Shown here: positions 6,001-58,495 of the stretch, piece after piece
Layout of the letters: every line of letters starts with the position of its first letter
Position numbering within the stretch: position 1 is the stretch's first letter
From: a virus
Strand: one strand, 5' to 3'
Length of the DNA stretch: 64,000 nt
Virus record (IMG/VR): IMGVR_UViG_3300044641_005643
Notes under the pieces: generated by a model
Seen by the model: only the letters and a program-made list of their open reading frames with translations
What the model was told of the DNA's origin: nothing
Databases searched by the model: none
Program-made: the position numbers and the translations under genes

Positions 6001-9000
6001 AGTTTAAGCAATCAATTTGACAATGAATTATTTGAGCAACCAATCTATTCTGACTGGGCGAATAATTACAAATTTCAAATTGTAGATTTTATACTTGGAA
6101 ATATTGGTTTAGATTATACATTCCCTCCAAATGTTGAAATAACAGGAGGTGGTGGATCAGGTGCATCTGCAATCACTACATTGTATTCAAACGGATCCAT
6201 ATCGGGTATCACAATCATCAATCCTGGCGTGGGATATACATCTGCGCCTGACGTTACAATCAACGGCGATGGTATAGGTGGTCAAGCATACCCAATTTTA
6301 AAAAATCAATATTATTCATTACAAAGCAATCTAAGTTATAATTTGGTCAAAAATATTTTCACTACTTTAAAATTTGATCGAACCACTTATAGCAGTAACC
6401 TGGTAACTTGGACACCAAATACTTCTTATTCAAACATTGTAATATCCAGCGACACTTTAGATCCAGGTAATTTGTATATTGTATCTGGAAATTTAGTTGT
6501 ACATGAAAATGAAGTTTATCTTCCACAGAATGCGAATGCAACACCTTGGTTGGTCAATACTTTGTATCCTATAAACAGTTACATTTCATTTAGTAACAAT
6601 GTTTATTCAACATCGGGTAATGTTTATGCAAGTAGTTTTGCTGCTGCTTCTGTGCAGGCAAACGTAGAAATTGTTTCACAATTTGACTTTACAAGATTTT
6701 CTATAATTCAAGATGGAAATGTTTTACTCAACGCACTAGATAGAATAACAGCATACTATGAACCTACCGTAGGAATGCCTGGAAAAAATATTGACGAGTT
6801 ACTGTCGGGTACAAAATACCCAGCATCAAAGGTAACTGGACCTACGTTTAGAGCCAATGCTTTTGAAGTTTCAAGCAATATCATTTCTTTCAATTATGAT
6901 GGTTTAACAATTAACAGTGGAAACACAGCACAGTTTGACTTTTTAGATTTGGGATTTGATCTAGACAAAACCATTAGAATCGAAGCCAACGTGCCTTTTG
7001 ACTTTCAAAATAATGGATATTTTAGAATCGTGGGAGTTGATAGAGACACCATGATTTTGACAGGTCAGCCTGTTGAAACAACATTTAAAGTCACATTGAG
7101 TCAAAACATCAATGCCAATGTTGGTGATTATCTTACTCAGGCCAATTCTAGTGGAAATGCCTGGGTGTTACAGTCTGTAACCAATTCTAATCAAGTTGAT
7201 ATCATTTATATTACACCTGGATTTTTAACTGTCCCGAGTGGTAATGTATATGCCAATTTACAAATTAGTAAAAATGGCACACCTTTAAACGCAAATGTAA
7301 CGTCAATATCTAATTTTGATAAAACATTTACACCAATTGCATCAGGCGGAAATGTTGAAGTAACTATTGCTTATCTTGATCAAGATTACATTGTTGATTC
7401 AAATATTTACAGCACATATTTAGATACTGAATTAGGCACAAGACCTGAAGATATCAATATAGTAGGCGGAGCCTATTTTGACATTTATTCAAGTCATGCT
7501 CCGGAAGAACTTGTGCCTGGTAGAATGTATGACGCCATGGAAATGCGTGTGTTTAGTAACACCGCTGGTAACACAGCCACTTACGGTTACAGAGTGTTCC
7601 AACCAATGAGCGCCAATATAACCTACAGTAGAATTAGTGCCAATGCTACCACAACACTCGCTAACAATTTGCTTTATTCAGATCAAGAAATTTTAGTAAG
7701 TGATGTGACCAAGTTACCTGAGCCAAATGTACCAGCTGGTATTCCTGGAGTGGTCTATATCAATGGTGAAAAAATTCATTATTACCAAAGATACGATGCA
7801 GTCAAACTGAGCACAGCAGTGGCCTGGACAGCAAACACTGAAATTGCAAAAAATTCTTTGATTGTGATCAACAGTAATACATTCTTAACACTAGGCAACG
7901 TATATGCAAATTCCGAGTCATATATTAATTCGGCAAATATACAATTAGTGAAAAATAATTCTTTGCGTCAATTGCGCAGAGGTGTAGATGGTACGGGCAT
8001 AAGTGCAAATGTTAGTAGTGGAAATTTAGTATCCGACGGTAGTGTGATTCAAACTATACCAGAGGCTCAAATAACCAGCGCACAAACTATCACCGGTAAT
8101 CTACATGTTACATCAAACGCCACTTACAGAGCAGTGCTATCCAGCCCAATCACAGCAAGCATAGGTGATTACATTACACAATTTGCAGGGAATACAGGTA
8201 ATGCAAGAATAGTAGGCGGAAATGTAAAAGGTTACAGATTGTTCTTGTCAGGAAATACCAGTCAGCTTGAAGGGAATGTTATTACTCAATTTGGTACTTC
8301 GAATGCCACAGCTACAATTGTTGAAACTGTCAATAACTCTACCACATTGATTGTGACACCAAACAGTAAATTTATCAGTTCTTTGGTTGATCCTGTGTAT
8401 GTCAATAACAAACTGACAGGTCTTTACATCACCAGAGTTGAAAAAGATATAATAGAAGATGATGTTGTAGCTGTTGATATTGTATCCCCAGGACTATGGG
8501 CAACTGCAAATCTTGATTATACTTTGACTTTGAGTAATGCAATTAGTGCTGCCAAGAACGATATAATAACACAGTTCTATGATCCAGATACTTACTTAGT
8601 GGAGTTTTCAAGTCCTATTACATCTAATGTGGGCGACTACATAACTCAGTTCCAAGGCAACACATACAGATTACAATTGGATAAGACTATAAGCGCAAAC
8701 ATCGGGGACTACATTACTCAATTTGTAGGTAATGTATCAAATCTTCAAGTTATTGATGCAAATGTAGTTTCAAATTTTGTTAATGTACAATTTGTCACGG
8801 GCAATGTAGAAAATCTAAAATTTGCTACCAATATTGGCACCAGAGTCAATATTGCTAACTTGTACAGTTTTGGTGGATCGGTGTTTAGCAATACTTCGGC
8901 CAACATTGTCAGTATCTATCAAAAAGCATTCTCACCGAGCGTTGTAAATGTTGGCAATGCCAACTTGCGTGTTACAAGAAGCAGTTTTAACAGTAATGTT

Positions 9001-9606
9001 ATACCAGTTCAATTTATTACCGGCGATGTTAATGTAATTAAGACAGCTGCCAATGTAGGCACTAGGGCCAATATTGCCAATTTGCAAGCAAATACATTTA
9101 ATTTTACAACAGCAAACATAGTTAGTATAACAATTGCACCTAATGTTAAAACTGTGTTTAGAGTGCGTTCAAATGTAAGCTCTTCATTTACAGTTCCAGT
9201 AGAATTCATATCTGGTAACACTGCCACGTTGAAACTGGCCACTAACGTTGCTACCAGAATTATTGATTCAACTAACTTTATAACCAATGCAAATGTTGTG
9301 TCTATAAGTTTAGACGGATTCGGAAGCAATACCTTTGGTAATGCTGACACAAGAATCAGCGTAGCAAGTAAAACTATTGGTGTAGTTAGCACAACTGCTA
9401 ACATTTTAACTTTACAACCAATTGGAGATATTACATTTACCAATAATTTACAGTATCCGAGAAGTTTGTTGTCGAATGGAAATGTAGTTCTAAACGGTGT
9501 AACAACTTTAAAGAGTAACATTTGGGAACAGTTTGGTGTCACATTACAAAATAGCACCACTGCGGCAGCACAATTTATTAGAGAGCAGACTAGTTATATA
9601 CCATGA
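1..9606 (+). CDS. Giant virion structural protein (baseplate/tail-associated), 5'-truncated by the window edge
   Basis: Frame is open from base 1 (tgg aaa act ggc aat gtg...), so the true start is upstream. Contains seven FG-GAP-like repeats, Gly-rich GxGY repeats typical of myovirus structural proteins, and C-terminal GDYITQ repeats. Lies at the head of the tail gene block. Confidence 0.75.
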   Translation, partial: WKTGNVLVLSPVSDYITIFNPTAIIDEVTGSAYGSRILDINSKAIRKNSFTVTRDNGLFTIKCIANETIGFATFDFVQYEHLLLLDNTTVFNDVIYVPETGSRQSRLKLVGNKTGLWNGSLELPGYIYSNETVPEWLAGSDYLKGSLVTYKSSLYTALQNIIAADTFQIAFWQKIDNNELRSGLINNFATNASQSLRYYDINDQPINEEIQLFSNGLIGFRPREYFTNLGIDVTTQSKFYQGLIKQGGTLNAIDALQGSQFNNLGTQPLTVYENWAIRVGEYGALETNNFLEFVLPEQFFRNNPSVFQLADVESNTDVDIKTFTQQSVYRQSSAFQVDFLKTVDYNEPVEFKPLPVAGFVHLDDINNTVFDIKNYESYREIADEIGIGYTIWTARDLNDEWNVYRATPVPGLIFILRYHLNSQAEFVSNAPHGLQENDIVALKNFDPRYNGMYLVQSIVDDTRFLATIYSNLQELIESQAVLGQGLLYKLTSSKFATPLDIVNYAPNSGLIRNDKVWVETVDDKDNWGVYTKTDPWIYRETIQLDQYSGFDHFGSAIALDFTSTYLYASAPDSGSGRIGVYSRDSQDEFTLRASLFSNHIYSQINQFGKVIATGTKNNVNSYLIASDPTATNDTGVVYVFKDRLLQCILTAESGVSGDMFGHSLALSDDAQYLYVGAPGANKVYCYAIDYERQSAVQELIQPDNGSITTLSLTALIDNATDIVVSASIIASQFLPYIDYNLDNTIDASIETFTFSGTAASGTANYINVSAVGGSGTGATFDVARSGGVYTVTLNNPGKGYVLNDTISILGEELGGSSLTNGLTINITKVLVGITGYTQTGDRPAAGTEVFYYNRTATGGTGTGAKFRVSYSSASDFYTLVLENAGVDYLIGDVLTIDGATVGGSTGVHDITITVTAVGAVTNLVFATPPASFLIMSVVKPAEKYIFLETLPKSSEVAINSEFGSAVVCNSDGSVIAVGASNTTVNDVSGAGAVFVYHRTKTELTTTGSSNTFTLPDPFGNFYRVYLDGVLQYDFTNKPEDVDADYTITSINPSQITFGDPGSSFLEPRRKLFVETNQFVYDQVLYSNLTGSLSDNFGSGLAMCNTGCNIYVVSSKYIEADYSQGLVTRFLNVGRIYGTILSTKTNPTVTPGQSIIINDRLVQFSGSQLANVIADINQALIPGVTASNESGKLRITSDVTVVGNRLNILNGNQGTPLADLGLEDYKFVQVFKHPETEQQFYGTSIAVDQTTGVLVIGSEGGDYDLPISFDQGLPLITTFDGNTTNFIDVLKDSGAVYVYDLLENPNEDIDNPSLFAYSQKLFGPALDDNVNFGSSVVLNGKYLIAGLSNARTISSENGELFYFYNEDEQSGWALSRFRQPRVDTNAVLSSFLYNVNSQQILDFFDYLDPAKGKLLGVVDQELDYKEEYDPASYNQSNRADTINNTNFYWSDKQVGRIWWDLSTISFIDYEQDEITYRIKNWGSLFPGSLVTIYEWVESDFLPSQYVDSVGDGAPRYADNSAYSSVTFIDPVTGIVTQKYYYWVVGKSNVDVLKTKRTISALALQNYITSPKDQNIPYLALLAPNAVGLYNIADKLSGENVAIHFDLAQIRNTNLIHTEWQLVQQGASLTNLPTKIINKLKDSLAGFDELGAIVPDPALSAQDKPGVSLLPRQSMVIHRNTAITTYVETLNLILVEYPILLLSTPTSLKSEEPLPVSGFDEQTDSVDNLNYIDTTTLPNGYKILVPSDTNHNGKWTIYSYNSSTGEFDLVRIQSYKSTLYWTAIDWYDTVYQPGTTIAYTLNTYAEIQTISPIAGDYIKILDGGNGTWILYETQDDLSLTLIGAQNGTLQLNRALYDPSLGGGYDTTTYDVSGYDPIPTEEFRLIYDGMVQQILVGELSVEFNNLFFAMLNYIFTEQKSPDWVIKTSLIDVVHGLRSLEQFPNFTRDNQVFYQDYINEVKPYRTQIKEYIPNYFKQDNLDSNITDFDLPSAYDARFDQFRSPSLSNQFDNELFEQPIYSDWANNYKFQIVDFILGNIGLDYTFPPNVEITGGGGSGASAITTLYSNGSISGITIINPGVGYTSAPDVTINGDGIGGQAYPILKNQYYSLQSNLSYNLVKNIFTTLKFDRTTYSSNLVTWTPNTSYSNIVISSDTLDPGNLYIVSGNLVVHENEVYLPQNANATPWLVNTLYPINSYISFSNNVYSTSGNVYASSFAAASVQANVEIVSQFDFTRFSIIQDGNVLLNALDRITAYYEPTVGMPGKNIDELLSGTKYPASKVTGPTFRANAFEVSSNIISFNYDGLTINSGNTAQFDFLDLGFDLDKTIRIEANVPFDFQNNGYFRIVGVDRDTMILTGQPVETTFKVTLSQNINANVGDYLTQANSSGNAWVLQSVTNSNQVDIIYITPGFLTVPSGNVYANLQISKNGTPLNANVTSISNFDKTFTPIASGGNVEVTIAYLDQDYIVDSNIYSTYLDTELGTRPEDINIVGGAYFDIYSSHAPEELVPGRMYDAMEMRVFSNTAGNTATYGYRVFQPMSANITYSRISANATTTLANNLLYSDQEILVSDVTKLPEPNVPAGIPGVVYINGEKIHYYQRYDAVKLSTAVAWTANTEIAKNSLIVINSNTFLTLGNVYANSESYINSANIQLVKNNSLRQLRRGVDGTGISANVSSGNLVSDGSVIQTIPEAQITSAQTITGNLHVTSNATYRAVLSSPITASIGDYITQFAGNTGNARIVGGNVKGYRLFLSGNTSQLEGNVITQFGTSNATATIVETVNNSTTLIVTPNSKFISSLVDPVYVNNKLTGLYITRVEKDIIEDDVVAVDIVSPGLWATANLDYTLTLSNAISAAKNDIITQFYDPDTYLVEFSSPITSNVGDYITQFQGNTYRLQLDKTISANIGDYITQFVGNVSNLQVIDANVVSNFVNVQFVTGNVENLKFATNIGTRVNIANLYSFGGSVFSNTSANIVSIYQKAFSPSVVNVGNANLRVTRSSFNSNVIPVQFITGDVNVIKTAANVGTRANIANLQANTFNFTTANIVSITIAPNVKTVFRVRSNVSSSFTVPVEFISGNTATLKLATNVATRIIDSTNFITNANVVSISLDGFGSNTFGNADTRISVASKTIGVVSTTANILTLQPIGDITFTNNLQYPRSLLSNGNVVLNGVTTLKSNIWEQFGVTLQNSTTAAAQFIREQTSYIP

Positions 9607-12452: not shown

Positions 12453-12460
12453 CATAAATA
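12453..12460 (+). promoter_or_regulatory. Putative T4-type late promoter (CATAAATA)
   Basis: One mismatch to TATAAATA, intergenic, upstream of a GGAG SD and the tail gene at 12486. Confidence 0.5.
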
Positions 12461-35430: not shown

Positions 35431-36408
35431 TTAATTATTTCCTAATTTGTTTTGCCAGTAATAAGAAGATCGAAACCACTCGTGATATTTTACGAATCCT
35501 TCTTCCACATTGGTGGTTGGAGCATACCCAAAGTCTTTGACTGCACGATCAATGTTCAATCTACCACGCTTGGGAAAGGCCAAGTCTCTATCTTCTATCT
35601 GTAGGCTACCTTGGCCAGCTATGTTTATTGCCAGTTCAGCTGCATCTTTTAAAGTGTATTGCTGCTCTGCACTGCGAGTGATATTGTAAATCTTGTTGGC
35701 ACTGTTTGCGCTTATGGTGGCCTGAACAATGCCCATGGCAGCATCTTGCACATAGGTAAAGTCCAACACTTCGTTGGCGCCTTTTACTCGTAACACATCA
35801 CCGCGCATAGCCGCTAACATAAACTTGCTGACCACTCGATCTTCTACGTCTAATTCACCATATACTGCACTGGGGCGAATGATCACCGATTCAAATCCGT
35901 ACTGGCGGGCGTAGTCTTCCACTAGTTTTTCGCCCATGTACTTCATGATGCCGTATTGACCAATTGGCCTACAGATAGCATCTTCATTCACATCTGACTC
36001 AAAGTCTCCGTACACCATGCTGGAGCTGATATATACAAATCTTTTGATCCTGTTAAATCTAGCTGCTTCCAATAGATTGATTAGACCGGTTGCCATAACT
36101 TCACTGGCAACCACAGGATTTTGACTGACAACTTTTTGTCTTGGAAAACTGGCCAGATGAACAACGGTGTCGCAGTTAAAGATGCCTATTCTGGTTCTTA
36201 AGTCGTCGGTGTTTCTGATATCAGCCACAAGCGGCACTGCACGTATTCTTTTAAATCTTTCTTTTAAAAGATAATCCAGTTCTGCCTGCGGCACAAAGCC
36301 GTATGTGGTTCTATTGTCAATACCAAAACATTCAATGCCACGTTGCTCAAAAAAACGCACAACATTGTGGCCAATGAATCCACCAGCACCTGTTATAAAT
36401 ATTTTCAT
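35431..36408 (-). CDS. NAD-dependent nucleotide-sugar epimerase/dehydratase
   Basis: TGAGGFIG, SSSMVYG, YGIMK (YxxxK), DFTYV. Confidence 0.9.
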   Translation of the reverse strand: MKIFITGAGGFIGHNVVRFFEQRGIECFGIDNRTTYGFVPQAELDYLLKERFKRIRAVPLVADIRNTDDLRTRIGIFNCDTVVHLASFPRQKVVSQNPVVASEVMATGLINLLEAARFNRIKRFVYISSSMVYGDFESDVNEDAICRPIGQYGIMKYMGEKLVEDYARQYGFESVIIRPSAVYGELDVEDRVVSKFMLAAMRGDVLRVKGANEVLDFTYVQDAAMGIVQATISANSANKIYNITRSAEQQYTLKDAAELAINIAGQGSLQIEDRDLAFPKRGRLNIDRAVKDFGYAPTTNVEEGFVKYHEWFRSSYYWQNKLGNN

Positions 36409-36635
36409 TGATATTTTAGTCTAAAATAAGTCGCTGCTTCAGGACTGAGCTTGCCTGTAATCACAACACGATAGCCCATTGTAGTTGGATCTGGTGTGAC
36501 ATGAAACACGGGTTGTTCTGTGACATTTGCCATCACCCACTTACCATGTTCGGTCTGTTGCCATTCGCCTATAGGGAATCCTGCATACAGATAAGGATCC
36601 TCCACATCAGGCATGTTAAATTCATGCAGTATCAT
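36405..36635 (-). CDS. Hypothetical protein
   Basis: 76-aa ORF coupled to both neighbours by ATGA overlaps. Confidence 0.6.
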   Translation of the reverse strand: MILHEFNMPDVEDPYLYAGFPIGEWQQTEHGKWVMANVTEQPVFHVTPDPTTMGYRVVITGKLSPEAATYFRLKYQ

Positions 36636-37549
36636 ACTGCCATTCGAGCCTTGATAGGTTCATGCGATTGATATCCGTCTAACACAATATCACCCATCGT
36701 AAATTCTGTAATTTCTTGTATGCCTGGACTTAATAGCAGTCGTGGAGCAGGTAATGGCTCACGCTTTAACTGTTCTTTTACCTGATCTACATGGTCCAGA
36801 TATATATGTGCATCGCCGAGTACATGAACAAACTCGCCTACATCGAGGCCGCACACATGAGCAATCATGTGTGTCAGCAAACTGTAGCTTGCTATGTTAA
36901 AAGGAACTCCCAAGAACATATCACAAGAACGCTGGTACATCTGGCACGACAACTTTCCATCTGCTACATAAAACTGTGCAAAACAATGACACGGCGGCAA
37001 AGCCATACGGTCCAGCTCTCCGGGGTTCCATGCAGTCAGTATTTGCCTACGACCGTAGGGATCAGATCGAATACCGTCAATCAACTGTTTTAGTTGATCC
37101 ACTTCTCGTACTTCAACATCGTTGCCTTGCCTGCGATATGCAACACCAAAGTCATCTCTAAACGTACCACCAGCAGCTCTGGGTTTAACAGTACGCCACC
37201 GACGCCATTGCACACCATACACACGACCAAGGTCGCCTTCAAATTTAGCACGAGGCCGCCAATAAGGAGCCATTGCATTTGGAGTCCAGATAGTTACCAC
37301 GCCGTCTCGAGTGCCGTGAGTAATTTCTGCGAGCCTACGCTCATCTCCGGATCCTTCAATCATCCACAACAGTTCGCCTACCACACTCTTCCAGGCAAGT
37401 TTTTTTGTAGTAACAGCTGGGAAACCTTGGCTCAAATCATATCGTTGTTGCATACCAAATTTGCTTATGGTGCCTACACCCGTACGATCATCTCTGCGTG
37501 TGCCTGTTTCTAATACATCACGTAAGGCCGTTAAATATTGTTGTTCCAT
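36632..37549 (-). CDS. thyA: Thymidylate synthase
   Basis: DRTGVGT, ELLW, YG.QWR, LPPCH, YQRSCD..LGVPFNIASY, DAHIY. Confidence 0.96.
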   Translation of the reverse strand: MEQQYLTALRDVLETGTRRDDRTGVGTISKFGMQQRYDLSQGFPAVTTKKLAWKSVVGELLWMIEGSGDERRLAEITHGTRDGVVTIWTPNAMAPYWRPRAKFEGDLGRVYGVQWRRWRTVKPRAAGGTFRDDFGVAYRRQGNDVEVREVDQLKQLIDGIRSDPYGRRQILTAWNPGELDRMALPPCHCFAQFYVADGKLSCQMYQRSCDMFLGVPFNIASYSLLTHMIAHVCGLDVGEFVHVLGDAHIYLDHVDQVKEQLKREPLPAPRLLLSPGIQEITEFTMGDIVLDGYQSHEPIKARMAV

Positions 37550-38056
37550 TTATAAAGGTCTAAAAATATCTACGTTTTTGTAGATACTAAAGTTTAACAT
37601 TTTATCTGCGCTAGGTCTAGAACTAGTAATCCGCATACCAGTCATAAATGCCCGCATATCTATTCTAACATCACTGAATGCGGCACCTTTCCTGTGCGTA
37701 ACATATGCGTAATCTATAAGGTCCTTGCATTCCATAATAATGTCCGGACCGCCAATGATAAAAACATTTTTGTTTGGATAAAGAGTCTGTAGTGCTCGAA
37801 TCTGCGTTTTATAATCACCTGACAATCTTCTAACAGTATTATAGCCCAGTGGTTTGTTTGATATAACACAGTTGATCCTGTCCGGTAAGGGCTTTTTCAT
37901 TTTGGGATCGTTCCAGGTGTTACGGCCCATGACCACAATTTGATTTAGGGTATGTTCGCGGAACCAGGCCATGTCTTCCTGATCGATAGGCCAAGGCAAA
38001 GTTCCACGATTACCAAATGTGCCCACTTGGTCGGTGGCAAAAATTGTACAAATCAT
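37550..38056 (-). CDS. folA: Dihydrofolate reductase
   Basis: G..GTLPW...DM.WF...T...VVMGRNTW, LPDR.N, IIGG; adjacent to thyA. Confidence 0.9.
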   Translation of the reverse strand: MICTIFATDQVGTFGNRGTLPWPIDQEDMAWFREHTLNQIVVMGRNTWNDPKMKKPLPDRINCVISNKPLGYNTVRRLSGDYKTQIRALQTLYPNKNVFIIGGPDIIMECKDLIDYAYVTHRKGAAFSDVRIDMRAFMTGMRITSSRPSADKMLNFSIYKNVDIFRPL

Positions 38057-49585: not shown

Positions 49586-49980
49586 GAGATCTCGGTACGC
49601 CCATTCCCTAAATCATTTCTATCTACCCGTCTTGGTCTTGCATCATATGGTTGATTGGCTTCCCATTGTTCAAAGTTTTCGTTTAGGATATTGCGACAAA
49701 TACTTTGAAACCAACGATCCACAATCTGATCATCGGTGTCGTCTTTGCGTTGCATGTAACCGGCCTTGACCAGTCTAGCAACAAATACGTCATTCCAATC
49801 TAGTTCAAATGACCCATTACCAATATCGTCAGGATCCAGTTCCACACTTAAAATACTGATATATGGCTCGCCTGCTTCGGTAGCAATCTCTTTGGCTGTT
49901 TTTGCTTTGGTTTTGACTTTTGGTGCTTCTGATTTTGCTTCAGGTTTTGCTTCTGGTCGTTTCTTTAACCAATCGAACAT
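49582..49980 (-). CDS. Hypothetical protein
   Basis: ATG at 49980 coupled to the queE stop; FELDWN motif. Confidence 0.6.
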   Translation of the reverse strand: MFDWLKKRPEAKPEAKSEAPKVKTKAKTAKEIATEAGEPYISILSVELDPDDIGNGSFELDWNDVFVARLVKAGYMQRKDDTDDQIVDRWFQSICRNILNENFEQWEANQPYDARPRRVDRNDLGNGRTEIS

Positions 49981-50828
49981 TATGTCCCCCATTCGTTCTT
50001 GAACAACGGTACTTGTAATCTATCACTATATCTTAATCCATGTTTCATTGCTAGTAGTGCAACTGCTCTATTGTTTAGCGAATATATACTTTCTACCCCA
50101 CCAACCGGCATCAGATATACGGATCCTCTAAATCCAGCATCTCTATATACTTTGACTGCTTTTAATGCATCAGCAACATCTTCTTCGGTAGCAACAACAA
50201 ATTTCAAGTATGTGTGGCCAACAGTTTGGTATCGATAAACAACGTCAGGACGTATGGCTTCTGACCATGTCTCACCACTAGCTGGCAGCTTGGCACTCAC
50301 ACTAAATGTAACTTCACGGCTTAAATTCAAGCCCGGCATTTGCCATTCCATTAGATATTCAACAAATTCTTCAGATAATTCTTGTGTGCCGTTAGTTTCA
50401 AAAGTAATTTCTTTTAGCTTGCGCATACGTGGATGATTCAACAAATCTGGATAAGCACGTTGCCAACCTAGCAATGGTTCTCCTCCGGTGATAACAAGAT
50501 GCTCATCTCGCCATTTGCCATGAGGCAGTATCTCCATGATACGATCCACAACTGCATTACTTGTTAGTACAGGACTAAGATCTTTAAATCTAGGATCCCA
50601 TGATGCATAACTGTCACATCCAGTTGATACTAAAGGCAGTTGTTCATACTTGGTATATTTGTCAGGATCTACACTGTCAGCTTCTTTACTTAGCTGGCCT
50701 CTAGGCATGCCAAAACCAGCACATTTAAAGTTACAGCCAAATGTACGCAGGAACACACTAGGTACCCCCATATATCTGCCTTCGCCTTGTATTGAATAAA
50801 ACAGTTCTGCTACTTTGATTTTACTCAT
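49980..50828 (-). CDS. queE: 7-carboxy-7-deazaguanine synthase (radical SAM)
   Basis: ELFYSIQGEG...G.PSVFLRT.GCNFKC...CDS, ITGGEP, ETNG, S.K, R.Q; adjacent to queD. Confidence 0.9.
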   Translation of the reverse strand: MSKIKVAELFYSIQGEGRYMGVPSVFLRTFGCNFKCAGFGMPRGQLSKEADSVDPDKYTKYEQLPLVSTGCDSYASWDPRFKDLSPVLTSNAVVDRIMEILPHGKWRDEHLVITGGEPLLGWQRAYPDLLNHPRMRKLKEITFETNGTQELSEEFVEYLMEWQMPGLNLSREVTFSVSAKLPASGETWSEAIRPDVVYRYQTVGHTYLKFVVATEEDVADALKAVKVYRDAGFRGSVYLMPVGGVESIYSLNNRAVALLAMKHGLRYSDRLQVPLFKNEWGT

Positions 50829-51343
50829 ACAAACAAGTCCTCATTCCATTCACGATGACCTTCACGAAATGCCATATTGCTTTGAGTTTCGCGTACTTCT
50901 ACTCGATAGCACCACAAACGTTCTGCTTCGCTCGGACCCCACATGTCAGGAATATACACTCCATTAACATATTTGTACAACATGTCTGCCAGTCCTTCAC
51001 AACCCAGTCTTGGTAATACAGTGAGCTTGGCCAACTTTTTTTCTTGTAACAGTTTAAAAGTTTCAAGTTCGGGATCGTCTTGTGCTACCAGCAAGGTATG
51101 GTCAAATTGGTCTTCTAGTATAGATTTAAGTTCTTTGAGACCACCATAGTCAGCGGCCCAGTTACGTACATCTAAATGATCTGTGCCAAAGAAAAACTTC
51201 ATACTAAATGAATAGCCATGAATTAGATTGCAGTGACTGTCGGCTCGCCATTGTCTATACGCACACGGAAATGCGTCATGGTATTCTTTCGTAGAAGTAT
51301 ATTTGTAAGTGCGTGGTTGTTGTATTTCGTTAAGATAAAGCAT
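50825..51343 (-). CDS. queD: 6-carboxy-5,6,7,8-tetrahydropterin synthase
   Basis: C.LIHGYS, DYG.LK, FDH, E.LA, V.ET motifs. Confidence 0.88.
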   Translation of the reverse strand: MLYLNEIQQPRTYKYTSTKEYHDAFPCAYRQWRADSHCNLIHGYSFSMKFFFGTDHLDVRNWAADYGGLKELKSILEDQFDHTLLVAQDDPELETFKLLQEKKLAKLTVLPRLGCEGLADMLYKYVNGVYIPDMWGPSEAERLWCYRVEVRETQSNMAFREGHREWNEDLFV

Positions 51344-51440
51344 TTTATTCTCCTATGTTAAGATTTTAGCATAGGCTTGCAGAATTTGTAAAGCGGGATG
51401 AATGCCAAGAAAGGCCGCTGTGTAGAATTGTATTTATACT
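51344..51440 (-). promoter_or_regulatory. Perfect T4 late promoter (TATAAATA, 51431-51438) plus structured 5' leader of queD-queE
   Basis: Hairpin agcgg/ccgct (51392-51419) and hairpin cctatg/catagg (51352-51375) covering the AGGAG SD. Confidence 0.6.
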
Positions 51441-51441
51441 G

Positions 51442-51990
51442 TTAGTTTTGCCACCAATTTTCCCAAGGGAAAACCACCCAACAGGGATCATCCAGTTTGT
51501 TGATGTTATGACTGCTATAGTCAATATTTTTAAAATTGCTAGATTCATTATTAATTAATACAGCAAATCTTACATTACGATTCCAGATGCCATCCCAGGC
51601 ATAATGCTGTGGCAGGCAACTGCTAGTCCAGTCTTTTTTGATCCACTCTAGTGTGGCACCTGAATCGTTAATGTCATCCACAATCAGAATATTTTTTCGA
51701 TAGGCAGGATCGGTATCAGCATCGCCTGAACCACGCTGATTTTTTGGGACATATCCAAATGCATGTTCGGCCATCCATAGATTACTTTCCGACTCACCGC
51801 CATCTCTCAAACTTACCTTGAGTGTTTCGCAAGGTACATTTAAGTAATGGCTAATCATTGTGGCAGCAGTCAAACCGCCTCTTGTGATACCTACAACATA
51901 GTCTGGGCGCCACTTGCTGTTAGTTATATCTCTACATAGAGTATTGACCATACCTTTTAGTTCTCTATTTGATATCACAAGCTGTTTCAT
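51442..51990 (-). CDS. Type I phosphoribosyltransferase (xanthine-guanine PRT-like)
   Basis: VGITRGGL, ILIVDDINDSGAT PRPP-binding loop, WVVFPWE. Confidence 0.88.
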   Translation of the reverse strand: MKQLVISNRELKGMVNTLCRDITNSKWRPDYVVGITRGGLTAATMISHYLNVPCETLKVSLRDGGESESNLWMAEHAFGYVPKNQRGSGDADTDPAYRKNILIVDDINDSGATLEWIKKDWTSSCLPQHYAWDGIWNRNVRFAVLINNESSNFKNIDYSSHNINKLDDPCWVVFPWENWWQN

Positions 51991-52499: not shown

Positions 52500-53177
52500 T
52501 TATTCTTTCCGATCTCCAAACAAGTGAAGCAAACTTAGAAACAAATTAATAAAATCTAAGTAAAGGGTAAGAGCACCCATGGCTTCAATTGCAGGACCAT
52601 CAGATTCCATCAACTGTTCTCTTATCTTTTGAGTATCATATGCTGTTAGGCCTAAAAAGATTACAACTGCTGCGGCACTAATTATGGTTTGAAGTAGAGA
52701 TGATCCTATAAAGATATTTACGATGCTTGTGATAATAATAGCGATTAGAGCCACAATCAAGTACTTTCCTAGGCTATCTAAACTTTGTTTGGTAAAATAA
52801 CCATACACACTCATGGTAGCAAATAGAATTGCTGCGCCAAAAAAAGCACTGACAATGCTGGCTGAAGTATATACAACAAAGATTGTGGCAAAACTTAACC
52901 CCATTAAGGCCGCAAAACCGTGAAGGCACAACTGCGCCACTGACTTACTGGGATTGTTTCCTAAAACGTATCCCACAGCAAATATAGCCGCTAGCGGAGC
53001 AAACAACACAATCCATTTGACAATTCCTGTAAATAGAAACGCCATTACGGCTGCATTAGATGATACCAAATAACTTACCACCATACTGGTGATTACCGCT
53101 AACGCCATGTTATTATAAACACGAATCATGGCATCATTGATTTCTGAGGCTGTTTTATAAGGTAAAGCGTATTCCAT
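52500..53177 (-). CDS. Bax inhibitor-1/YccA family membrane protein
   Basis: About 7 hydrophobic segments; AYDTQKI and GAL.LYLDFINLF; ATG at 53177 with AGGAG SD. Confidence 0.9.
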   Translation of the reverse strand: MEYALPYKTASEINDAMIRVYNNMALAVITSMVVSYLVSSNAAVMAFLFTGIVKWIVLFAPLAAIFAVGYVLGNNPSKSVAQLCLHGFAALMGLSFATIFVVYTSASIVSAFFGAAILFATMSVYGYFTKQSLDSLGKYLIVALIAIIITSIVNIFIGSSLLQTIISAAAVVIFLGLTAYDTQKIREQLMESDGPAIEAMGALTLYLDFINLFLSLLHLFGDRKE

Positions 53178-53187
53178 TTTAATCTCC

Positions 53188-53883
53188 TTATCTTGGTGCA
53201 AACTCTTGTTGCAGTTTGATGTTATCAAAAAATTCTTTCTTGACACTAGGGTCATCTTTGAACACACCTTTTAGAACTGTGGTCTGGGTGAGACTACTGT
53301 GTGCCATAATGCCGCGATTCTCGCAGCAACCGTGGGTGGCCTGAATGTATACAGCCACGTCTTTACTTCCAGTTGCAAATTCGATTTCTCTTGCAATGTC
53401 CATACAAAGCTCTTCCTGCAGAGTGCCTCTCCGGGCACACCACTGGGCGATTCTTGTATACTTTGAGAGACCAATGAGTTTGGGACCAGCAATAATCCCA
53501 ATATAAGCCACGCCAGTAACAGGCTGGTGATGATGGCTGCACACGCTTTTGAGCTCGCTTCGTACGACCAACATACCTTCGTATTTTCCATCAGTGTCAT
53601 TTGGAAATGCAGTTGCATTTGGAGTCGGTTCATATCTACCTGCCATCAATTCATTGTAATACATTTTGGCAAGACGCCGGGCTGTGCCTTGGCTGTTGGG
53701 ATCTGTAACTCTGTCAATAAGCAAAGTATCCAGCACTTGTTCAAATGCTTCAGTTGCTTCATCGATTAGCAAATCCTTGTCTGCATCATCAACATAACTG
53801 CTGATATTGTCTCCGGCCCAATATCTTTTGCCGTTTGCTTGCATTTGTTGTCTAATGCGATCACTTACTCGTGTGTATTTCAT
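53188..53883 (-). CDS. folE: GTP cyclohydrolase I
   Basis: T.RR.AKM, S.CSHH, GLSK..R, R..LQE, H.C...RG. Confidence 0.93.
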   Translation of the reverse strand: MKYTRVSDRIRQQMQANGKRYWAGDNISSYVDDADKDLLIDEATEAFEQVLDTLLIDRVTDPNSQGTARRLAKMYYNELMAGRYEPTPNATAFPNDTDGKYEGMLVVRSELKSVCSHHHQPVTGVAYIGIIAGPKLIGLSKYTRIAQWCARRGTLQEELCMDIAREIEFATGSKDVAVYIQATHGCCENRGIMAHSSLTQTTVLKGVFKDDPSVKKEFFDNIKLQQEFAPR

Positions 53884-53903
53884 AATCACCTAAATAAAAA
53901 TTA

Positions 53904-54437
53904 TTATACTAAAAATCCAGAAACTTGTAAAGTATATTTTACTTCCATTCCTGCATTGGTGCTCAAATGCAACACATTCGAATCCCAGATAAAACCGTCT
54001 CCTGCTTGCCAATTTACACTAGTTGTATATCCGTTATTCTCTTGATATTGAATAAATTGCCCAATTTTATAATCTTCCAGGTATATATTTGCTCTTACTT
54101 TTAACTCTGTTCTGTTAGGAAATCTTTTCGAAATCTGATAAAAAGTATCGCGATGCAAAGGAACAGTGCATCCTGGCGGTTGCATTATTGTACTTACTGT
54201 CACTACTTCAATTCCTAATTGATTGCCTAATTGTTTATAATCACACTGGGATTCATCCCACCATAATTGGTGTATTTTTGTGTTTTCAAAAACATATGAT
54301 TGAGGAAATCCTCCGTACTGTTCATGTATATCTGTTAATTCATAAACTTGATGTTTAATGCAACTACTACAATTTTGTGAATAATCTGCCTGTAAAAATT
54401 GGGTAAAATCATAATCAATATGTATTTTTTTAAGCAT
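53904..54437 (-). CDS. 2OG-Fe(II)/cupin dioxygenase-like protein
   Basis: PLHRD...H..TNAG...KYTLQ (HxD...H); paralog of 57001..57525. Confidence 0.6.
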   Translation of the reverse strand: MLKKIHIDYDFTQFLQADYSQNCSSCIKHQVYELTDIHEQYGGFPQSYVFENTKIHQLWWDESQCDYKQLGNQLGIEVVTVSTIMQPPGCTVPLHRDTFYQISKRFPNRTELKVRANIYLEDYKIGQFIQYQENNGYTTSVNWQAGDGFIWDSNVLHLSTNAGMEVKYTLQVSGFLV

Positions 54438-55002
54438 TATTTTGCCTTGTGATATTGTTTGTAAAGTTATTTAGATGGGTTAACACTTGTTCTTTATTAA
54501 CCTCCCCAATTTTTTTCACAGGTGTTCCGCCATAAATTACCCACGGATCCAAATCTTGATTGACCAGACTATGAGCACCAATTCTTGTGCCTGTATTAAT
54601 AGTAATACCCGGTAGAACTGTAGATTTAGTTCCTAAAATAACATGTTCTTTCAAAGTAATATCACCATATTCCAAACCTTGTTCTACATTGTTATTATGC
54701 ACTATATGAAGTCCTGTTTGAAAATTATGGGTACCGCACATAAGAGTGCTATTACTACAAATGCAACTGTAAGGACCAACTGTTATTTTATTGTTTTGTC
54801 CGCCCATTAACACACTACCTGCTTCAATGGCACTGTGTTCATTTAAAATCAAACCTGTAGAGATAAAACAAAAATCATCAATTATAGTATTGTCGTGTAG
54901 TTCTACCAGTTCTGGAAAACGTATTCTAACAGTTTTACCAATTATAACATTCTTACCGATAAATTTTAATTTTTTTATATCAAAAAAGATATTATCATTC
55001 AC
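54430..55002 (-). CDS. Hexapeptide-repeat sugar acyltransferase
   Basis: IGKNVIIG repeats, VILG..STVLPGITI..GTRIGA.SLV..D, GTP.K. Confidence 0.85.
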   Translation of the reverse strand: MNDNIFFDIKKLKFIGKNVIIGKTVRIRFPELVELHDNTIIDDFCFISTGLILNEHSAIEAGSVLMGGQNNKITVGPYSCICSNSTLMCGTHNFQTGLHIVHNNNVEQGLEYGDITLKEHVILGTKSTVLPGITINTGTRIGAHSLVNQDLDPWVIYGGTPVKKIGEVNKEQVLTHLNNFTNNITRQNNA

Positions 55003-55615
55003 GTATTTTTATCTTTCTGCAGTCTGGATAATTGTATAATGAATCAACCTGTTCAACAAATTCATCATTAAGTAATTTATTCAAGCCTACAACACATTCT
55101 TCTGGCTTCAAATAATAATGGTATCCTATATCAAACTCCTGTTGCGTAGCCCAGTCGCGATATTTAAAAATGTCTCTACCGTCGTAGCGCATTCTACTTG
55201 CTTTTTCATATAAATTTTTGTCATCTGTTAATATACAACCGCCTTTACCAATTTCCAAAGGTTTAGTACGACCAAAACTAATGCATTGAATAGAATTTTC
55301 TACATACATATTTTTTTGAAAGTATCTTGCACAATCCCAAATATTACTGCCTTGAAAAACGTAATAATTTTTCCAATCTAGATCTAGCAAATCATAGGGA
55401 ATATTTAGTTTATGCATTATTTGTAAAACACTCAAATATGTTCTACACGGAAAACTAATTTTGTTATTTTGATAAGTTAATCGAAATGAAATTTCAATTG
55501 CATGAGTACAGCAATCAGTTGTAACAGCATAAGGAGCACCTGTAAATTCAGCTATTTCATGCTCAAATTCTAAAATAGCATCGAAAGCATTGTTATAGTC
55601 ATTTAATGTTTTCAT
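54995..55615 (-). CDS. DegT/DnrJ/EryC1-family PLP aminotransferase, short form
   Basis: FE..IAEF.GA.YAV....CT.A, D.A, SF..TKPL..G.GG; about 206 aa from the ATG at 55615. Confidence 0.75.
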   Translation of the reverse strand: MKTLNDYNNAFDAILEFEHEIAEFTGAPYAVTTDCCTHAIEISFRLTYQNNKISFPCRTYLSVLQIMHKLNIPYDLLDLDWKNYYVFQGSNIWDCARYFQKNMYVENSIQCISFGRTKPLEIGKGGCILTDDKNLYEKASRMRYDGRDIFKYRDWATQQEFDIGYHYYLKPEECVVGLNKLLNDEFVEQVDSLYNYPDCRKIKIRE

Positions 55616-55619
55616 TAAA

Positions 55620-55973
55620 TTATTCTGATAGGTGATCTTTTTTAATTTCTTTGACTGAACAATGCAAGATATCTGCAATTGTGTTCTTGATATCTATTCT
55701 AGTGTTATTTAAATTTCTAATTTGGATCGCTCTTGATCCAATTTCTTCTAGTGAAAGATTTGATTCATTGCCTGATTTAAGTTCAGCTTCAAGATTCCAA
55801 ATGGCTATATGTATGCTATACAGTTTTTCAAATTCTTTATCAATCAATTCCCATTGAAATTTTTCAACAGCAGTTGAATAAAAATTATATTCTTGATAAT
55901 TGGCTCCGTTAGTTTTACCATATTTTAGTTTTGCAATTGCATATCTATCTATAAGTTCTATAACCGGAAACAT
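55620..55973 (-). CDS. Hypothetical helical protein
   Basis: ELIDR..I..LK...IW.LE...N..R...KN motif. Confidence 0.6.
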   Translation of the reverse strand: MFPVIELIDRYAIAKLKYGKTNGANYQEYNFYSTAVEKFQWELIDKEFEKLYSIHIAIWNLEAELKSGNESNLSLEEIGSRAIQIRNLNNTRIDIKNTIADILHCSVKEIKKDHLSE

Positions 55974-57001
55974 TATAAGTAAAGACTTTCTAAATTTTGT
56001 GGTTGATCTATTATTTTTTGTATTTGAATATTACTTATGTTGGGCCTGCATGGAGCACAAAGATTAACATTTGTTTTGTTGTAAATTTCATTATGCCTAT
56101 CATTTAACCAAAGATCTCTAAAATCTCCTGTATCCCAACTGCCTAATTCAAATTTGGTATTTCCTTTTCCTTCACAACACACATATATTTTTCCATTCGC
56201 ACAGAATACAGGAAAATGATACATTTGATGACATTTTTTATAAGTTCGAGAAAGTGTTTTATTAATATTAATTTTATAATTTTGTTGATAGGTCTCACTT
56301 AAGTCTTTTAAAATAGATAATGTCGTTTCACTTATAGAGTATGCCTTATTGTTTAATATCACCGGACGGAAATAAAGAGTTCGTCCACCTAATTTCTTTA
56401 CTAATGCAAACAAATCATTAAAAGCTTCAAAATTATCATTGTGCTGATTGATTAGACATTTAAAATCAACATTACATCCTAAATCTATTAATGACTTGGC
56501 ATTGTCGCATACCTTATCAAACAAACTTTTTGAAGTTAAACTTCTTCTAATGACTTCGTATAAATTTTTTTCTCCAGCATCTATGTCTATACCAATCCAT
56601 GCAATTTTTTTTAATTTGTCAATTGAAACATTATCTCGCAGTTTATCTAAATTTGATCCATTTGTAGTTATGCTACATAAAAAACCCAAATCAATAGTGT
56701 GTTCAATAACTTTTTCGTAACCACTTAGAACAGTAGGTTCCCCACCACCGGGATATGTAATAGTATGTGTGGTTCCATAACTCTTTGGGCTGTGTGATCT
56801 CCAAGTTGATATTTTATCTAACAAAGAAATATATTCTTTATAATTTTTTTGCACAGGTTCTTTTTTACGAAATTCATAGGAGTTACAGTAAAAACAATCT
56901 TGATTACACACATTCGTCAAATCAATATCTACCTGTGCAGGCAGTATTTTCATTTGATCTTTATTTGACATCCAATGCACCAATTCAGCAAATTGATACA
57001 T
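55973..57001 (-). CDS. Radical SAM/SPASM protein
   Basis: CNQDCFYC, GGGEP, TNG; C-terminal C...G.IYVCC...F.DLW...C.PC. Confidence 0.88.
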   Translation of the reverse strand: MYQFAELVHWMSNKDQMKILPAQVDIDLTNVCNQDCFYCNSYEFRKKEPVQKNYKEYISLLDKISTWRSHSPKSYGTTHTITYPGGGEPTVLSGYEKVIEHTIDLGFLCSITTNGSNLDKLRDNVSIDKLKKIAWIGIDIDAGEKNLYEVIRRSLTSKSLFDKVCDNAKSLIDLGCNVDFKCLINQHNDNFEAFNDLFALVKKLGGRTLYFRPVILNNKAYSISETTLSILKDLSETYQQNYKININKTLSRTYKKCHQMYHFPVFCANGKIYVCCEGKGNTKFELGSWDTGDFRDLWLNDRHNEIYNKTNVNLCAPCRPNISNIQIQKIIDQPQNLESLYL

Positions 57002-57525
57002 TAGATTCTTTCCACACCAGTTATTTGCATGGTATATCTAGGTTCTATTCCAATGTTTGCAGCAAAGTGAGAGGTGTTGTTGTTCCAAACTACATAGTCC
57101 CCTCTTTTCCAATTAACAAAACCTTGTCCATCAATTTCAAAATAATGTCCGCTTTTCCAATCTTCTAAAAAAACAATACAACGCCAAATTTTTGACGGAT
57201 CTTCTATATTATAAAGTTTTCTGTATGTAAGGTAACTATCATAATGTAGAGGAAACATGTTTAATGTTCGTTGGCAATAATAATTAATTGTCACATGATC
57301 CCAATCGAACATTGTTAAAAAAGGAACAGCGTACTCTGGCATATTTTTTTCTAAAGTTGGCATATTTACTGTCATGCCATTTAGTGTTACACCTACATAT
57401 CCTTGGCCACGCCATCTATCTTCGTCAAAAGTATTTTTAATTGGCAAATATTGAAAGTCTAATTGTTTAAAGGAATCATCCCACCAAGGATCAATATGAC
57501 CAAATTTGTATGAATGTGTTTGCAT
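57001..57525 (-). CDS. 2OG-Fe(II)/cupin dioxygenase-like protein
   Basis: PLHYD...FLEDW..GH...H.AANIG...RYTMQITG. Confidence 0.6.
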   Translation of the reverse strand: MQTHSYKFGHIDPWWDDSFKQLDFQYLPIKNTFDEDRWRGQGYVGVTLNGMTVNMPTLEKNMPEYAVPFLTMFDWDHVTINYYCQRTLNMFPLHYDSYLTYRKLYNIEDPSKIWRCIVFLEDWKSGHYFEIDGQGFVNWKRGDYVVWNNNTSHFAANIGIEPRYTMQITGVERI

Positions 57526-57535
57526 TATAAAATAC

Positions 57536-58495
57536 TTATTTCATGTACCATTTATAAGCGGAATCTACTATTTGATCAAGTGTAGAATAACGTGGTTGCC
57601 ATTTTAAAATGTTTTGCGCTAAACTTGCATTAGCCACAAGTTGATCAGGATCGCCTGGACGTCTAGGTCCTATCTGTACTTTTACAGGTCCATAATTTAA
57701 AATTATGTAATCTATAATTTGTTGATTGCTTATTCCTTGATTTGTTCCTAAATTAAACACTGCCCAACGACCATCTGTGTTCCATTGGATAGCACGATAA
57801 TGTGCATCTGCCAAGTCCCAAACATGTATGTAATCTCTTATACATGTTCTGTCTGGTGTAGCATAGTCGGTACCGTTCAAAGTAAAATACTGGTCATTTA
57901 TTTTAGATTCTAACAATCTGGCAATAATATGATTAGCCCCAGATTCTTGACCAAGATCATAGTTGTGGGGTTCGGCTCCGGCAGCGTTAAAGTATCTAAA
58001 GCACACACTGGCTAGTCCATATGCCTGATTATAGTTTTGTAAAATCACTTCAACGATATCTTTTGAATGACCGTACGGAGTAATAGGTTTTACCCTGTCT
58101 GTTTCAACCAATGGAACACGATCAGGGTTGCCGTACACACTAGCACTAGAACTAAAAAGAACAAGCGGTTTCTTTTTATAATCCTTAACATGATTTAAAA
58201 ATGTAATAGTCTTTGCCACATTGTTGTCATAATATTTTGCAGGATCAAGCACACTTTCTCCAACAGAAATATCTCCAGCACAATGTACAATGACATCGGG
58301 TTGTAATTCATCTAACCATAATAAACTTTGTCGTGAAACATAATCAGTATGTAAGAAACCATCAACATTTTTTAGTGTGTGATCTCTACGTTCGCGATCA
58401 ATAATATACACACTAGAGTTTTCAATGCGTTGTTTTAGATAGCGGGCGATGTGGCTACCAATGTAACCACATCCACCTGTAATTACAATTTTCAT
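57536..58495 (-). CDS. galE: UDP-glucose 4-epimerase
   Basis: TGGCGYIGSH, SVGES...P.KYY.NN, SSSA.VYG, YG.SK, RYFNAAGA, IRDYIHV.DLA. Confidence 0.9.
   Translation of the reverse strand: MKIVITGGCGYIGSHIARYLKQRIENSSVYIIDRERRDHTLKNVDGFLHTDYVSRQSLLWLDELQPDVIVHCAGDISVGESVLDPAKYYDNNVAKTITFLNHVKDYKKKPLVLFSSSASVYGNPDRVPLVETDRVKPITPYGHSKDIVEVILQNYNQAYGLASVCFRYFNAAGAEPHNYDLGQESGANHIIARLLESKINDQYFTLNGTDYATPDRTCIRDYIHVWDLADAHYRAIQWNTDGRWAVFNLGTNQGISNQQIIDYIILNYGPVKVQIGPRRPGDPDQLVANASLAQNILKWQPRYSTLDQIVDSAYKWYMK

Follow-up and report, generated by a model that had tools for sequence, protein, structure and literature searches.

A conserved pseudoknot leader of uncultured phage queD genes as a candidate translational riboswitch

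The queD locus and its gene context

Genes of the 7-deazapurine pathway are present on the minus strand of the window, a term used here for the whole 64,000-nt stretch of viral DNA that was analysed (IMG/VR record IMGVR_UViG_3300044641_005643). These genes are folE (53188-53889), a purine-phosphoribosyltransferase-like (PRTase) ORF (51442-51990), queD (50825-51343) and a queE-like radical SAM gene (49980-50828). The 172-aa queD product belongs to the PTPS/6-carboxytetrahydropterin synthase family (Pfam PF01242, E = 2e-14; PHROG 2389, QueD-like). The queE-like gene shares 4 nt with the end of queD, so that its translation is probably coupled to that of queD. Between the stop of the PRTase-like ORF and the ATG of queD lies a gap of 98 nt (51344-51441, minus strand), as had been noticed in an earlier interpretation made from the letters of this DNA (hereafter, the sequence-only reading). 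To judge from its position, queD would be the gene gated by the leader that this gap encodes.

A gene for a Bax1-I/YccA-like membrane protein (52500-53267, minus strand; Pfam E = 5e-51) is located between folE and the PRTase-like ORF, and its ORF call overlaps that of folE by about 80 nt. The que genes are adjoined by thyA and a DHFR gene. Sugar-nucleotide modification genes, encoding NAD-dependent epimerase/dehydratases, a DegT-type aminotransferase, a hexapeptide acyltransferase and a radical-SAM protein whose similarity to the viperin family is weak and below threshold, are found on the minus strand at 54430-58495 and 35431-38056. On the plus strand, an ORF of about 3200 aa (1-9606), open at the 5' end of the window, heads a long series of ORFs in the same orientation.

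The 7-deazaguanine pathway is used by phages to modify their DNA against host restriction. Neither QueC nor TGT/DpdA was detected by tblastn in the window or in 222 loci, nor by Pfam searches in five related contigs of 108-217 kb, which are 31-60% complete. In 40 loci the PRTase gene is found as a neighbour. The set of 7-deazapurine genes seems incomplete, with hints that the route may stop at CDG, or make a 7-deazapurine nucleotide instead of carrying out a DNA base exchange.

The motif described below is tightly linked to queD. The gene located downstream of it encodes a PTPS/QueD protein (Pfam) in every sampled subfamily, with identities to the window QueD that fall to 23%, and of about 160 distinct leaders only one is not immediately followed by such a gene. 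This association also holds for those copies that were recovered with a pattern search blind to the downstream gene. In the exceptional locus (L015, 2076-3003) a gene for a 276-aa SAM-methyltransferase is placed between the leader and queD. Upstream of the leader, folE is present in 55 of 57 loci, and queE follows downstream in 52 of 55; this arrangement suggests that the leader gates the committed step and not the whole pathway.

Three loci (L034, positions 2160-2830, together with L159 and L197) show a different arrangement, in which a 183-aa ORF begins directly after the 5' half of the motif, that is, P1 5' strand, L1, P2 5' strand, L2 and P1 3' strand. The half motif is preceded by a sigma-70 promoter, and a complete motif with queD is located about 630 nt downstream. 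The N-terminus of this ORF is GIY-YIG-like, as judged by eye, and the insertion looks like a putative homing-endonuclease cassette that entered the leader immediately behind its P1 3' strand.

Structure and distribution of the motif

Folded as a single sequence, the leader is unremarkable (-15.7 kcal/mol; z = -0.59 vs shuffles). The structure becomes apparent by comparison of relatives. In loci fetched from IMG/VR the sequence before queD is conserved in nearly all 80, regardless of which gene lies upstream. The sequence-only reading had described two separate hairpins, the first with an outer stem AGCGG/CCGCT and an inner stem GCC/GGC, and the second formed by CCTATG and CATAGG. Compensatory changes in the outer stem can be seen by eye in the 80 fetched loci, and so can a helix of another kind, in which the GGC of the supposed inner stem pairs with a GCC just upstream of hairpin 2.

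The copies collected from viral contigs amount to 190, of which 151 are distinct. Three alignments were evaluated for the outer stem (P1) and the new helix (P2). A MAFFT alignment of 49 copies has 90% of its cells paired (P1, 99.6%; P2, 81%), while the model-based alignments A2 (94 copies) and A3 (100 copies) reach 96% (97.7% and 94%) and 92.5% (99.8% and 85%), respectively. When the 3' partners were slid by 1-3 columns, pairing dropped to at most 61% of cells, and none of 500 column shuffles attained the observed value. Covariation affects all five pairs of P2, with changes on both sides, and up to three of the five pairs of P1. The check that the sequence-only reading had proposed, covariation in queD leaders of related phages, has therefore come out in favour of a conserved structured cis-regulatory leader tied to queD, and its outer stem is borne out as well. 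The inner stem, in contrast, was rejected: only 64% of its cells are paired, which is the level of shuffles, it shows no covariation, and its GGC takes part in P2 instead. Consequently, the architecture is not that of two independent hairpins but that of one H-type pseudoknot made by P1 and P2.

A blind test was carried out with a pattern that comprised the 3' half only and barred G from the middle of the P1 3' strand, so that the commonest form, CCGCU, was excluded. Viral contigs yielded 102 distinct matches, about 94 of them with a compensated 5' strand (AGAGG/CCUCU, AGUGG/CCACU) and also with a queD-type ORF; the other matches, about 8, are due to chance and lack both the 5' arm and such an ORF. 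The 151 distinct copies show three types of middle P1 pair, A-U (53), C-G (52) and U-A (46), and nothing else. The QueD protein tree implies at least 32 changes from one type to another, and the pair is never left unpaired; the number is an estimate, because the protein tree may differ from the history of the RNA. In P2, G.U pairs are frequent (15 and 25, for example, at two positions of A2). Read from the opposite strand they would become A.C mismatches, which places the RNA in the queD sense.

In the window the motif occupies 46 nt (51374-51419, minus strand), and it measures about 44-50 nt across copies. The P1 5' strand AGCGG (51415-51419) pairs with the P1 3' strand CCGCU (51392-51396). 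Between the P1 and P2 5' strands, L1 (CCUUUCUU, 51407-51414) starts with a conserved nCU that is followed by a variable spacer; in the 151-copy alignment it is 3-9 nt long, column 11 being C in 138 of the 151 copies and column 12 U in 123. The P2 5' strand GGCAU (51402-51406) has its partner in the P2 3' strand AAGCC (51374-51378). This helix is composed of 4-7 Watson-Crick pairs across copies; in the window, four of five pairs are formed, with an internal A.A mismatch.

L2, UCAUC in the window (51397-51401), has U24, C25 and C29 in every one of the 151 copies and A26 in 148 of them. Its final C (51397), which is the invariant C29, lies directly 5' of the P1 3' strand and is preceded by U in 125 copies, C in 24 and A in 2. 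L3 (UUACAAAUUCUGC, 51379-51391) is an A-rich loop of 13 nt ending in UCUGC, with A37, A40, A42, U44, C45 and G47 invariant in the distinct copies. Altogether, 12 positions are counted as invariant in the 151 distinct copies, seven of them in loops and the other five in the two innermost pairs of P1; most of the remaining loop positions are nearly so. The leader combines covarying structure at the 5' end of a message with conserved unpaired nucleotides, which is what is expected of a riboswitch.

A further relation concerns column 39 of L3 (51388), which tracks the middle P1 pair (columns 7/32; 51417/51394). This column is a pyrimidine in 49 of the 52 copies with C-G, and A in all 99 copies with A-U or U-A. 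The position may lie in the P1 groove as part of an L3-P1 base triple; however strong the correlation, it comprises only 3 well-supported independent contrasts (p = 0.25).

With respect to distribution, a covariance model finds one copy in the 64-kb window (51373-51423, 65.4 bits, E 1e-19; the next best hit scores 10.9 bits) and one full copy per locus in 190 loci. The window QueD has at least 589 relatives in IMG/VR contigs, and its best cultured relative belongs to Acidovorax phage ACP17 (54% identity). A DNA search of the GenBank phages (about 50,000 deposited genomes) with the 1.5-kb locus and three aptamer variants gave chance matches only. The motif is also absent from the queD loci of the cultured phages ACP17, BUDD, R5C, PhiXhv-15, Phosso, Me-ZS1, Motura and HTN2, where the best score is 6.5 bits and most loci have no gap before queD. 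A pattern scan of representative genomes of 185,579 prokaryote species returned 22 stretches with only five true copies, all of them on short MAG contigs that are phage-like in look and promoters; no true copy is carried by the isolate bacterial genomes among these representatives. The motif is found only in uncultured phage contigs.

Rfam 15, searched at E <= 10 with 1.2 kb of the locus, the 87-nt leader and 16 other loci, returned spurious matches only, located on the SD/ATG flank. These were preQ1-II (16.5 bits, with its 69-nt core deleted), Mu-gpT-DE and freshwater-2, and, in the other loci, unrelated eukaryotic families. The motif is not described in the literature searched either. By these searches, it is kept by hundreds of uncultured phages and stands outside every catalogued RNA family.

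Expression platform and promoters

The P2 3' strand AAGCC acts in two alternative pairings and is called here the switch strand, since its CC also opens the arm that covers the Shine-Dalgarno (SD) sequence. Hairpin 2 of the sequence-only reading holds: CCUAUG (51370-51375) and CAUAGG (51352-51357) enclose a 12-nt loop (whole hairpin 51352-51375, minus strand), and the 3' arm pairs the AGG of the SD AGGAG (51350-51354). This sequestering hairpin is present in 49 distinct leaders, called class A, in which its sixth pair is GC in 39, GU in 4 and AU in 4.

Similar arrangements are found throughout the relatives. When the region from the P2 3' strand through codon 4 was folded alone in 161 distinct leaders, the switch strand paired with the AUG in 102 and with the SD in 55 (157 of the 161), and the alternative helix took at least 2 nt of the P2 3' strand in all 161 and at least 3 nt in 139. 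In the 79 leaders of class B (...GUCAUC.../...GAUGRC...) the four final nucleotides of P2 find partners in the G of the start codon and in positions +4 to +6, at frequencies of 100, 92, 99 and 76%, respectively. There, 211 of 237 cells pair, a value reached by none of 2000 shuffles, and G-C to C-G exchanges are present.

Because the P2 3' strand is shared, P2 and the sequestering helix cannot coexist. Compared as bare duplexes, the sequestering one exceeds P2 in stability in 98% of the leaders (median 3.3 kcal/mol), which points to OFF as the default state. Formation of the knot should free the ribosome-binding site, that is, the wiring would be ON, since hairpin 2 shares its CC with the P2 3' strand. 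The SD-sequestration platform of the sequence-only reading is retained in so far as a helix over the ribosome-binding site exists; what changes is its direction, because it is not a simple ligand-induced sequestration and the SD would be free when the knot is formed. The window belongs to class A, where P2 and the sequestering helix overlap only at CC (51374-51375); given this 2-nt overlap and the A.A mismatch of P2, the competition is weaker in the window than in class B. A scan of the leader for terminators found none, and a platform based on transcription termination was ruled out on this ground.

Upstream of the motif, the T4-late-type box TATAAATA that had been read as a promoter is present (51431-51438, minus strand). 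The whole box occurs 3 times in the window vs 7.9 expected, that is, more rarely than by chance, while ATAAATA occurs 9 times, 4 of them within the 5.6% of non-coding DNA. The intergenic copies, at 12454 (plus strand) and 39079, 44752 and 51431 (minus strand), are each located at most 90 nt upstream of a gene on the same strand. This enrichment in intergenic DNA makes a promoter box plausible, and ATAAATA is likely a promoter element of this phage. In relatives, a TAAATA/TAAGTA box or a sigma-70 -10 box is found ahead of P1, in most cases with its end 5-11 nt away, and some of the sigma-70 boxes carry a TTGAC -35. The RNA would then probably start a few bases before P1, and T4 geometry predicts a start about 5-6 nt before it.

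A second promoter-like site lies inside the leader (51363-51392, minus strand). A promoter scan identified TTTACA, an 18-nt spacer and TGcTAAAAT, a 10/12 match to the sigma-70 consensus plus the TG. The -35 (51387-51392) falls in L3, and the extended -10 (TGn followed by TAAAAT, 51363-51368) falls in the loop of hairpin 2. TGnTAnAAT recurs in the loops of 42 out of 49 class-A leaders, where TTTACA or TATACA precedes it by 17-18 nt; class B has no internal promoter and still keeps the aptamer. A transcript from this site is predicted to start in the 3' arm of the hairpin, to lack the anti-SD and to leave the SD free. The earlier argument that promoter choice alone could not free the SD is for this reason doubtful, and in class A the internal promoter could bypass the switch during part of the infection cycle.

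Proposed mechanism, rival readings and known systems

We propose that the queD-queE message carries at its 5' end a riboswitch-like RNA that acts on translation, with an aptamer at 51374-51419, an OFF default and an ON state promoted by a candidate ligand, and we assign this reading a probability of roughly 0.55. The elements of the RNA would be transcribed in the order P1 5' strand, L1, P2 5' strand, L2, P1 3' strand, L3 and P2 3' strand. In the absence of the ligand, the CC of the P2 3' strand would open the CCUAUG/CAUAGG hairpin over the AGG of the SD in this phage, and in other phages the P2 3' strand would pair instead with the start codon and codon 2. Binding of a small ligand through the invariant loop nucleotides would make the knot more stable, and this would draw the switch strand off the ribosome-binding site and turn on QueD translation; QueE translation would follow by coupling to QueD.

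The invariant cytosine suggests that the ligand presents a guanine-like face; 7-deazaguanines, guanine nucleotides and pterins would all qualify. The most likely candidate has a 2-amino-4-oxo face, and could be a 7-deazaguanine or a GTP-derived pterin such as H2NTP, the substrate of QueD. ON wiring and the position after folE would favour a precursor such as H2NTP. A more specific version, tentative and possible at best, is that of a virus-only riboswitch class whose ligand is not preQ1 but an upstream intermediate (H2NTP, which is the FolE product, CPH4 or CDG) that activates translation of QueD. If so, the leader would exert a feed-forward, metabolite-gated control over a phage pathway for DNA hypermodification or for a 7-deazapurine nucleotide.

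To our knowledge, few riboswitches occur in phages, and the known ones copy bacterial classes. The motif described here is abundant in uncultured phages and is predicted to gate the committed step of 7-deazaguanine synthesis. A point against the proposal is that ON control of biosynthesis is out of the ordinary for the preQ1 family. We know of no preQ1 switch whose wiring is not opposite to the one predicted for the phage motif. If a ligand is found, the motif would represent a new pair of aptamer fold and ligand, the first metabolite-gated control of phage DNA modification, and, for engineering, a compact ON switch of some 70-80 nt. With a short, well-delimited motif and 151 natural variants to draw on for mutagenesis, the question can be addressed directly at the bench.

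The competing helices could be real and yet work with no small-molecule ligand, as an operator for a phage or host protein, as a co-transcriptional folding timer or as an element sensitive to Mg2+ or temperature. In favour of this explanation, which we consider rather unlikely, the knot is transcribed first and the sequestering helix is thermodynamically favoured, so that the message could be ON at the beginning and turn OFF upon refolding to the stabler helix. An A-rich L3 over a G-C-rich P1 is also typical of self-stabilised, ligand-free pseudoknots, and the possible base triple at column 39 would suit such a structure. However, a pure timer does not need invariant UCUGC and UCAYC loops. The seven invariant loop nucleotides, in an RNA far more conserved than the proteins encoded next to it (23% identity), resemble metabolite aptamers, and no conserved candidate binding protein was seen beside the motif in all loci.

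A further rival, judged improbable, is that the motif is a divergent member of preQ1-I (RF00522) that binds preQ1 or preQ0 and represses queD. Both RNAs are small H-type pseudoknots of the order P1-L1-P2-L2-P1'-L3-P2', with an A-rich L3, and both are placed before 7-deazaguanine biosynthesis genes and act at the ribosome-binding site. In preQ1-I, of which the RNAs of B. subtilis queC, T. tengcongensis and C. antarcticum are among the examples of types I-III, a cytosine precedes the P1 3' strand as UC in type I and as AC in types II/III (PMC11625349). The phage motif has a C at this place in 151 of 151 copies, in most of them after U as in type I (PMC11625349) and in others after C, and its role in binding is predicted. 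The differences are nevertheless numerous. RF00522 gave no match at E <= 10 in the 1.2 kb, in the 87-nt leader or in the 16 other loci, and the sequence-only reading had likewise set the leader apart from preQ1-I; none of preQ1-I, -II and -III is recovered by Rfam beyond the spurious hit mentioned above. The phage motif is longer (about 44-50 nt vs about 34 nt); its L1, of 3-9 nt, carries the conserved nCU, whereas that of preQ1-I is short (UU in types I/III), and its 13-nt L3 ends in the invariant UCUGC. Furthermore, P2 contains the SD in preQ1-I, while the phage P2 does not, its 3' strand being the anti-RBS, so that knot formation should free the ribosome-binding site. Binding of preQ1 or preQ0 represses in preQ1-I, whereas the wiring of the phage motif predicts activation. 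The motif is best described as a new phage-only riboswitch candidate, built like preQ1-I but outside that family.

Very improbable is conservation at the DNA level only, with promoters or a protein-binding or homing site being retained and the RNA structure incidental: a sigma-70-like promoter does overlap L3 and hairpin 2 in class A, and the GIY-YIG-like ORF that three loci carry inserted directly behind the P1 3' strand indicates that conserved DNA can be a homing target, but two mutually crossing helices show compensatory changes, G.U is tolerated on one strand only, and class B dispenses with the promoter while keeping the aptamer.

The riboswitch-like reading has partial counterparts in other known systems. 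THF-II (the folE motif) is likewise a leader RNA on a gene of a GTP-derived pterin pathway, for which a ligand with a 2-amino-4-oxo face is plausible. It differs in being a simple hairpin with an internal loop that belongs to bacteria, while the phage motif has no Rfam match.

In T4 genes e and 49, the hairpin that occludes the SD contains a promoter, and a short transcript without the 5' arm is translated freely. The window leader has the same combination of a hairpin over the SD with a promoter-like site inside, here a consensus match only. In T4, however, the internal promoter is late, whereas in the window leader the late-like box stands upstream and the internal site is sigma-70-like (early); besides, the internal site is found in class-A leaders only.

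The adenine riboswitch of Vibrio vulnificus add is a translational ON switch based on a three-strand competition. As proposed for the phage leader, an aptamer helix and a helix that sequesters the ribosome-binding site compete for one switch strand, and the ligand-stabilised aptamer frees the SD or AUG. The aptamer of add is a three-way junction, whereas that of the phage motif would be a pseudoknot.
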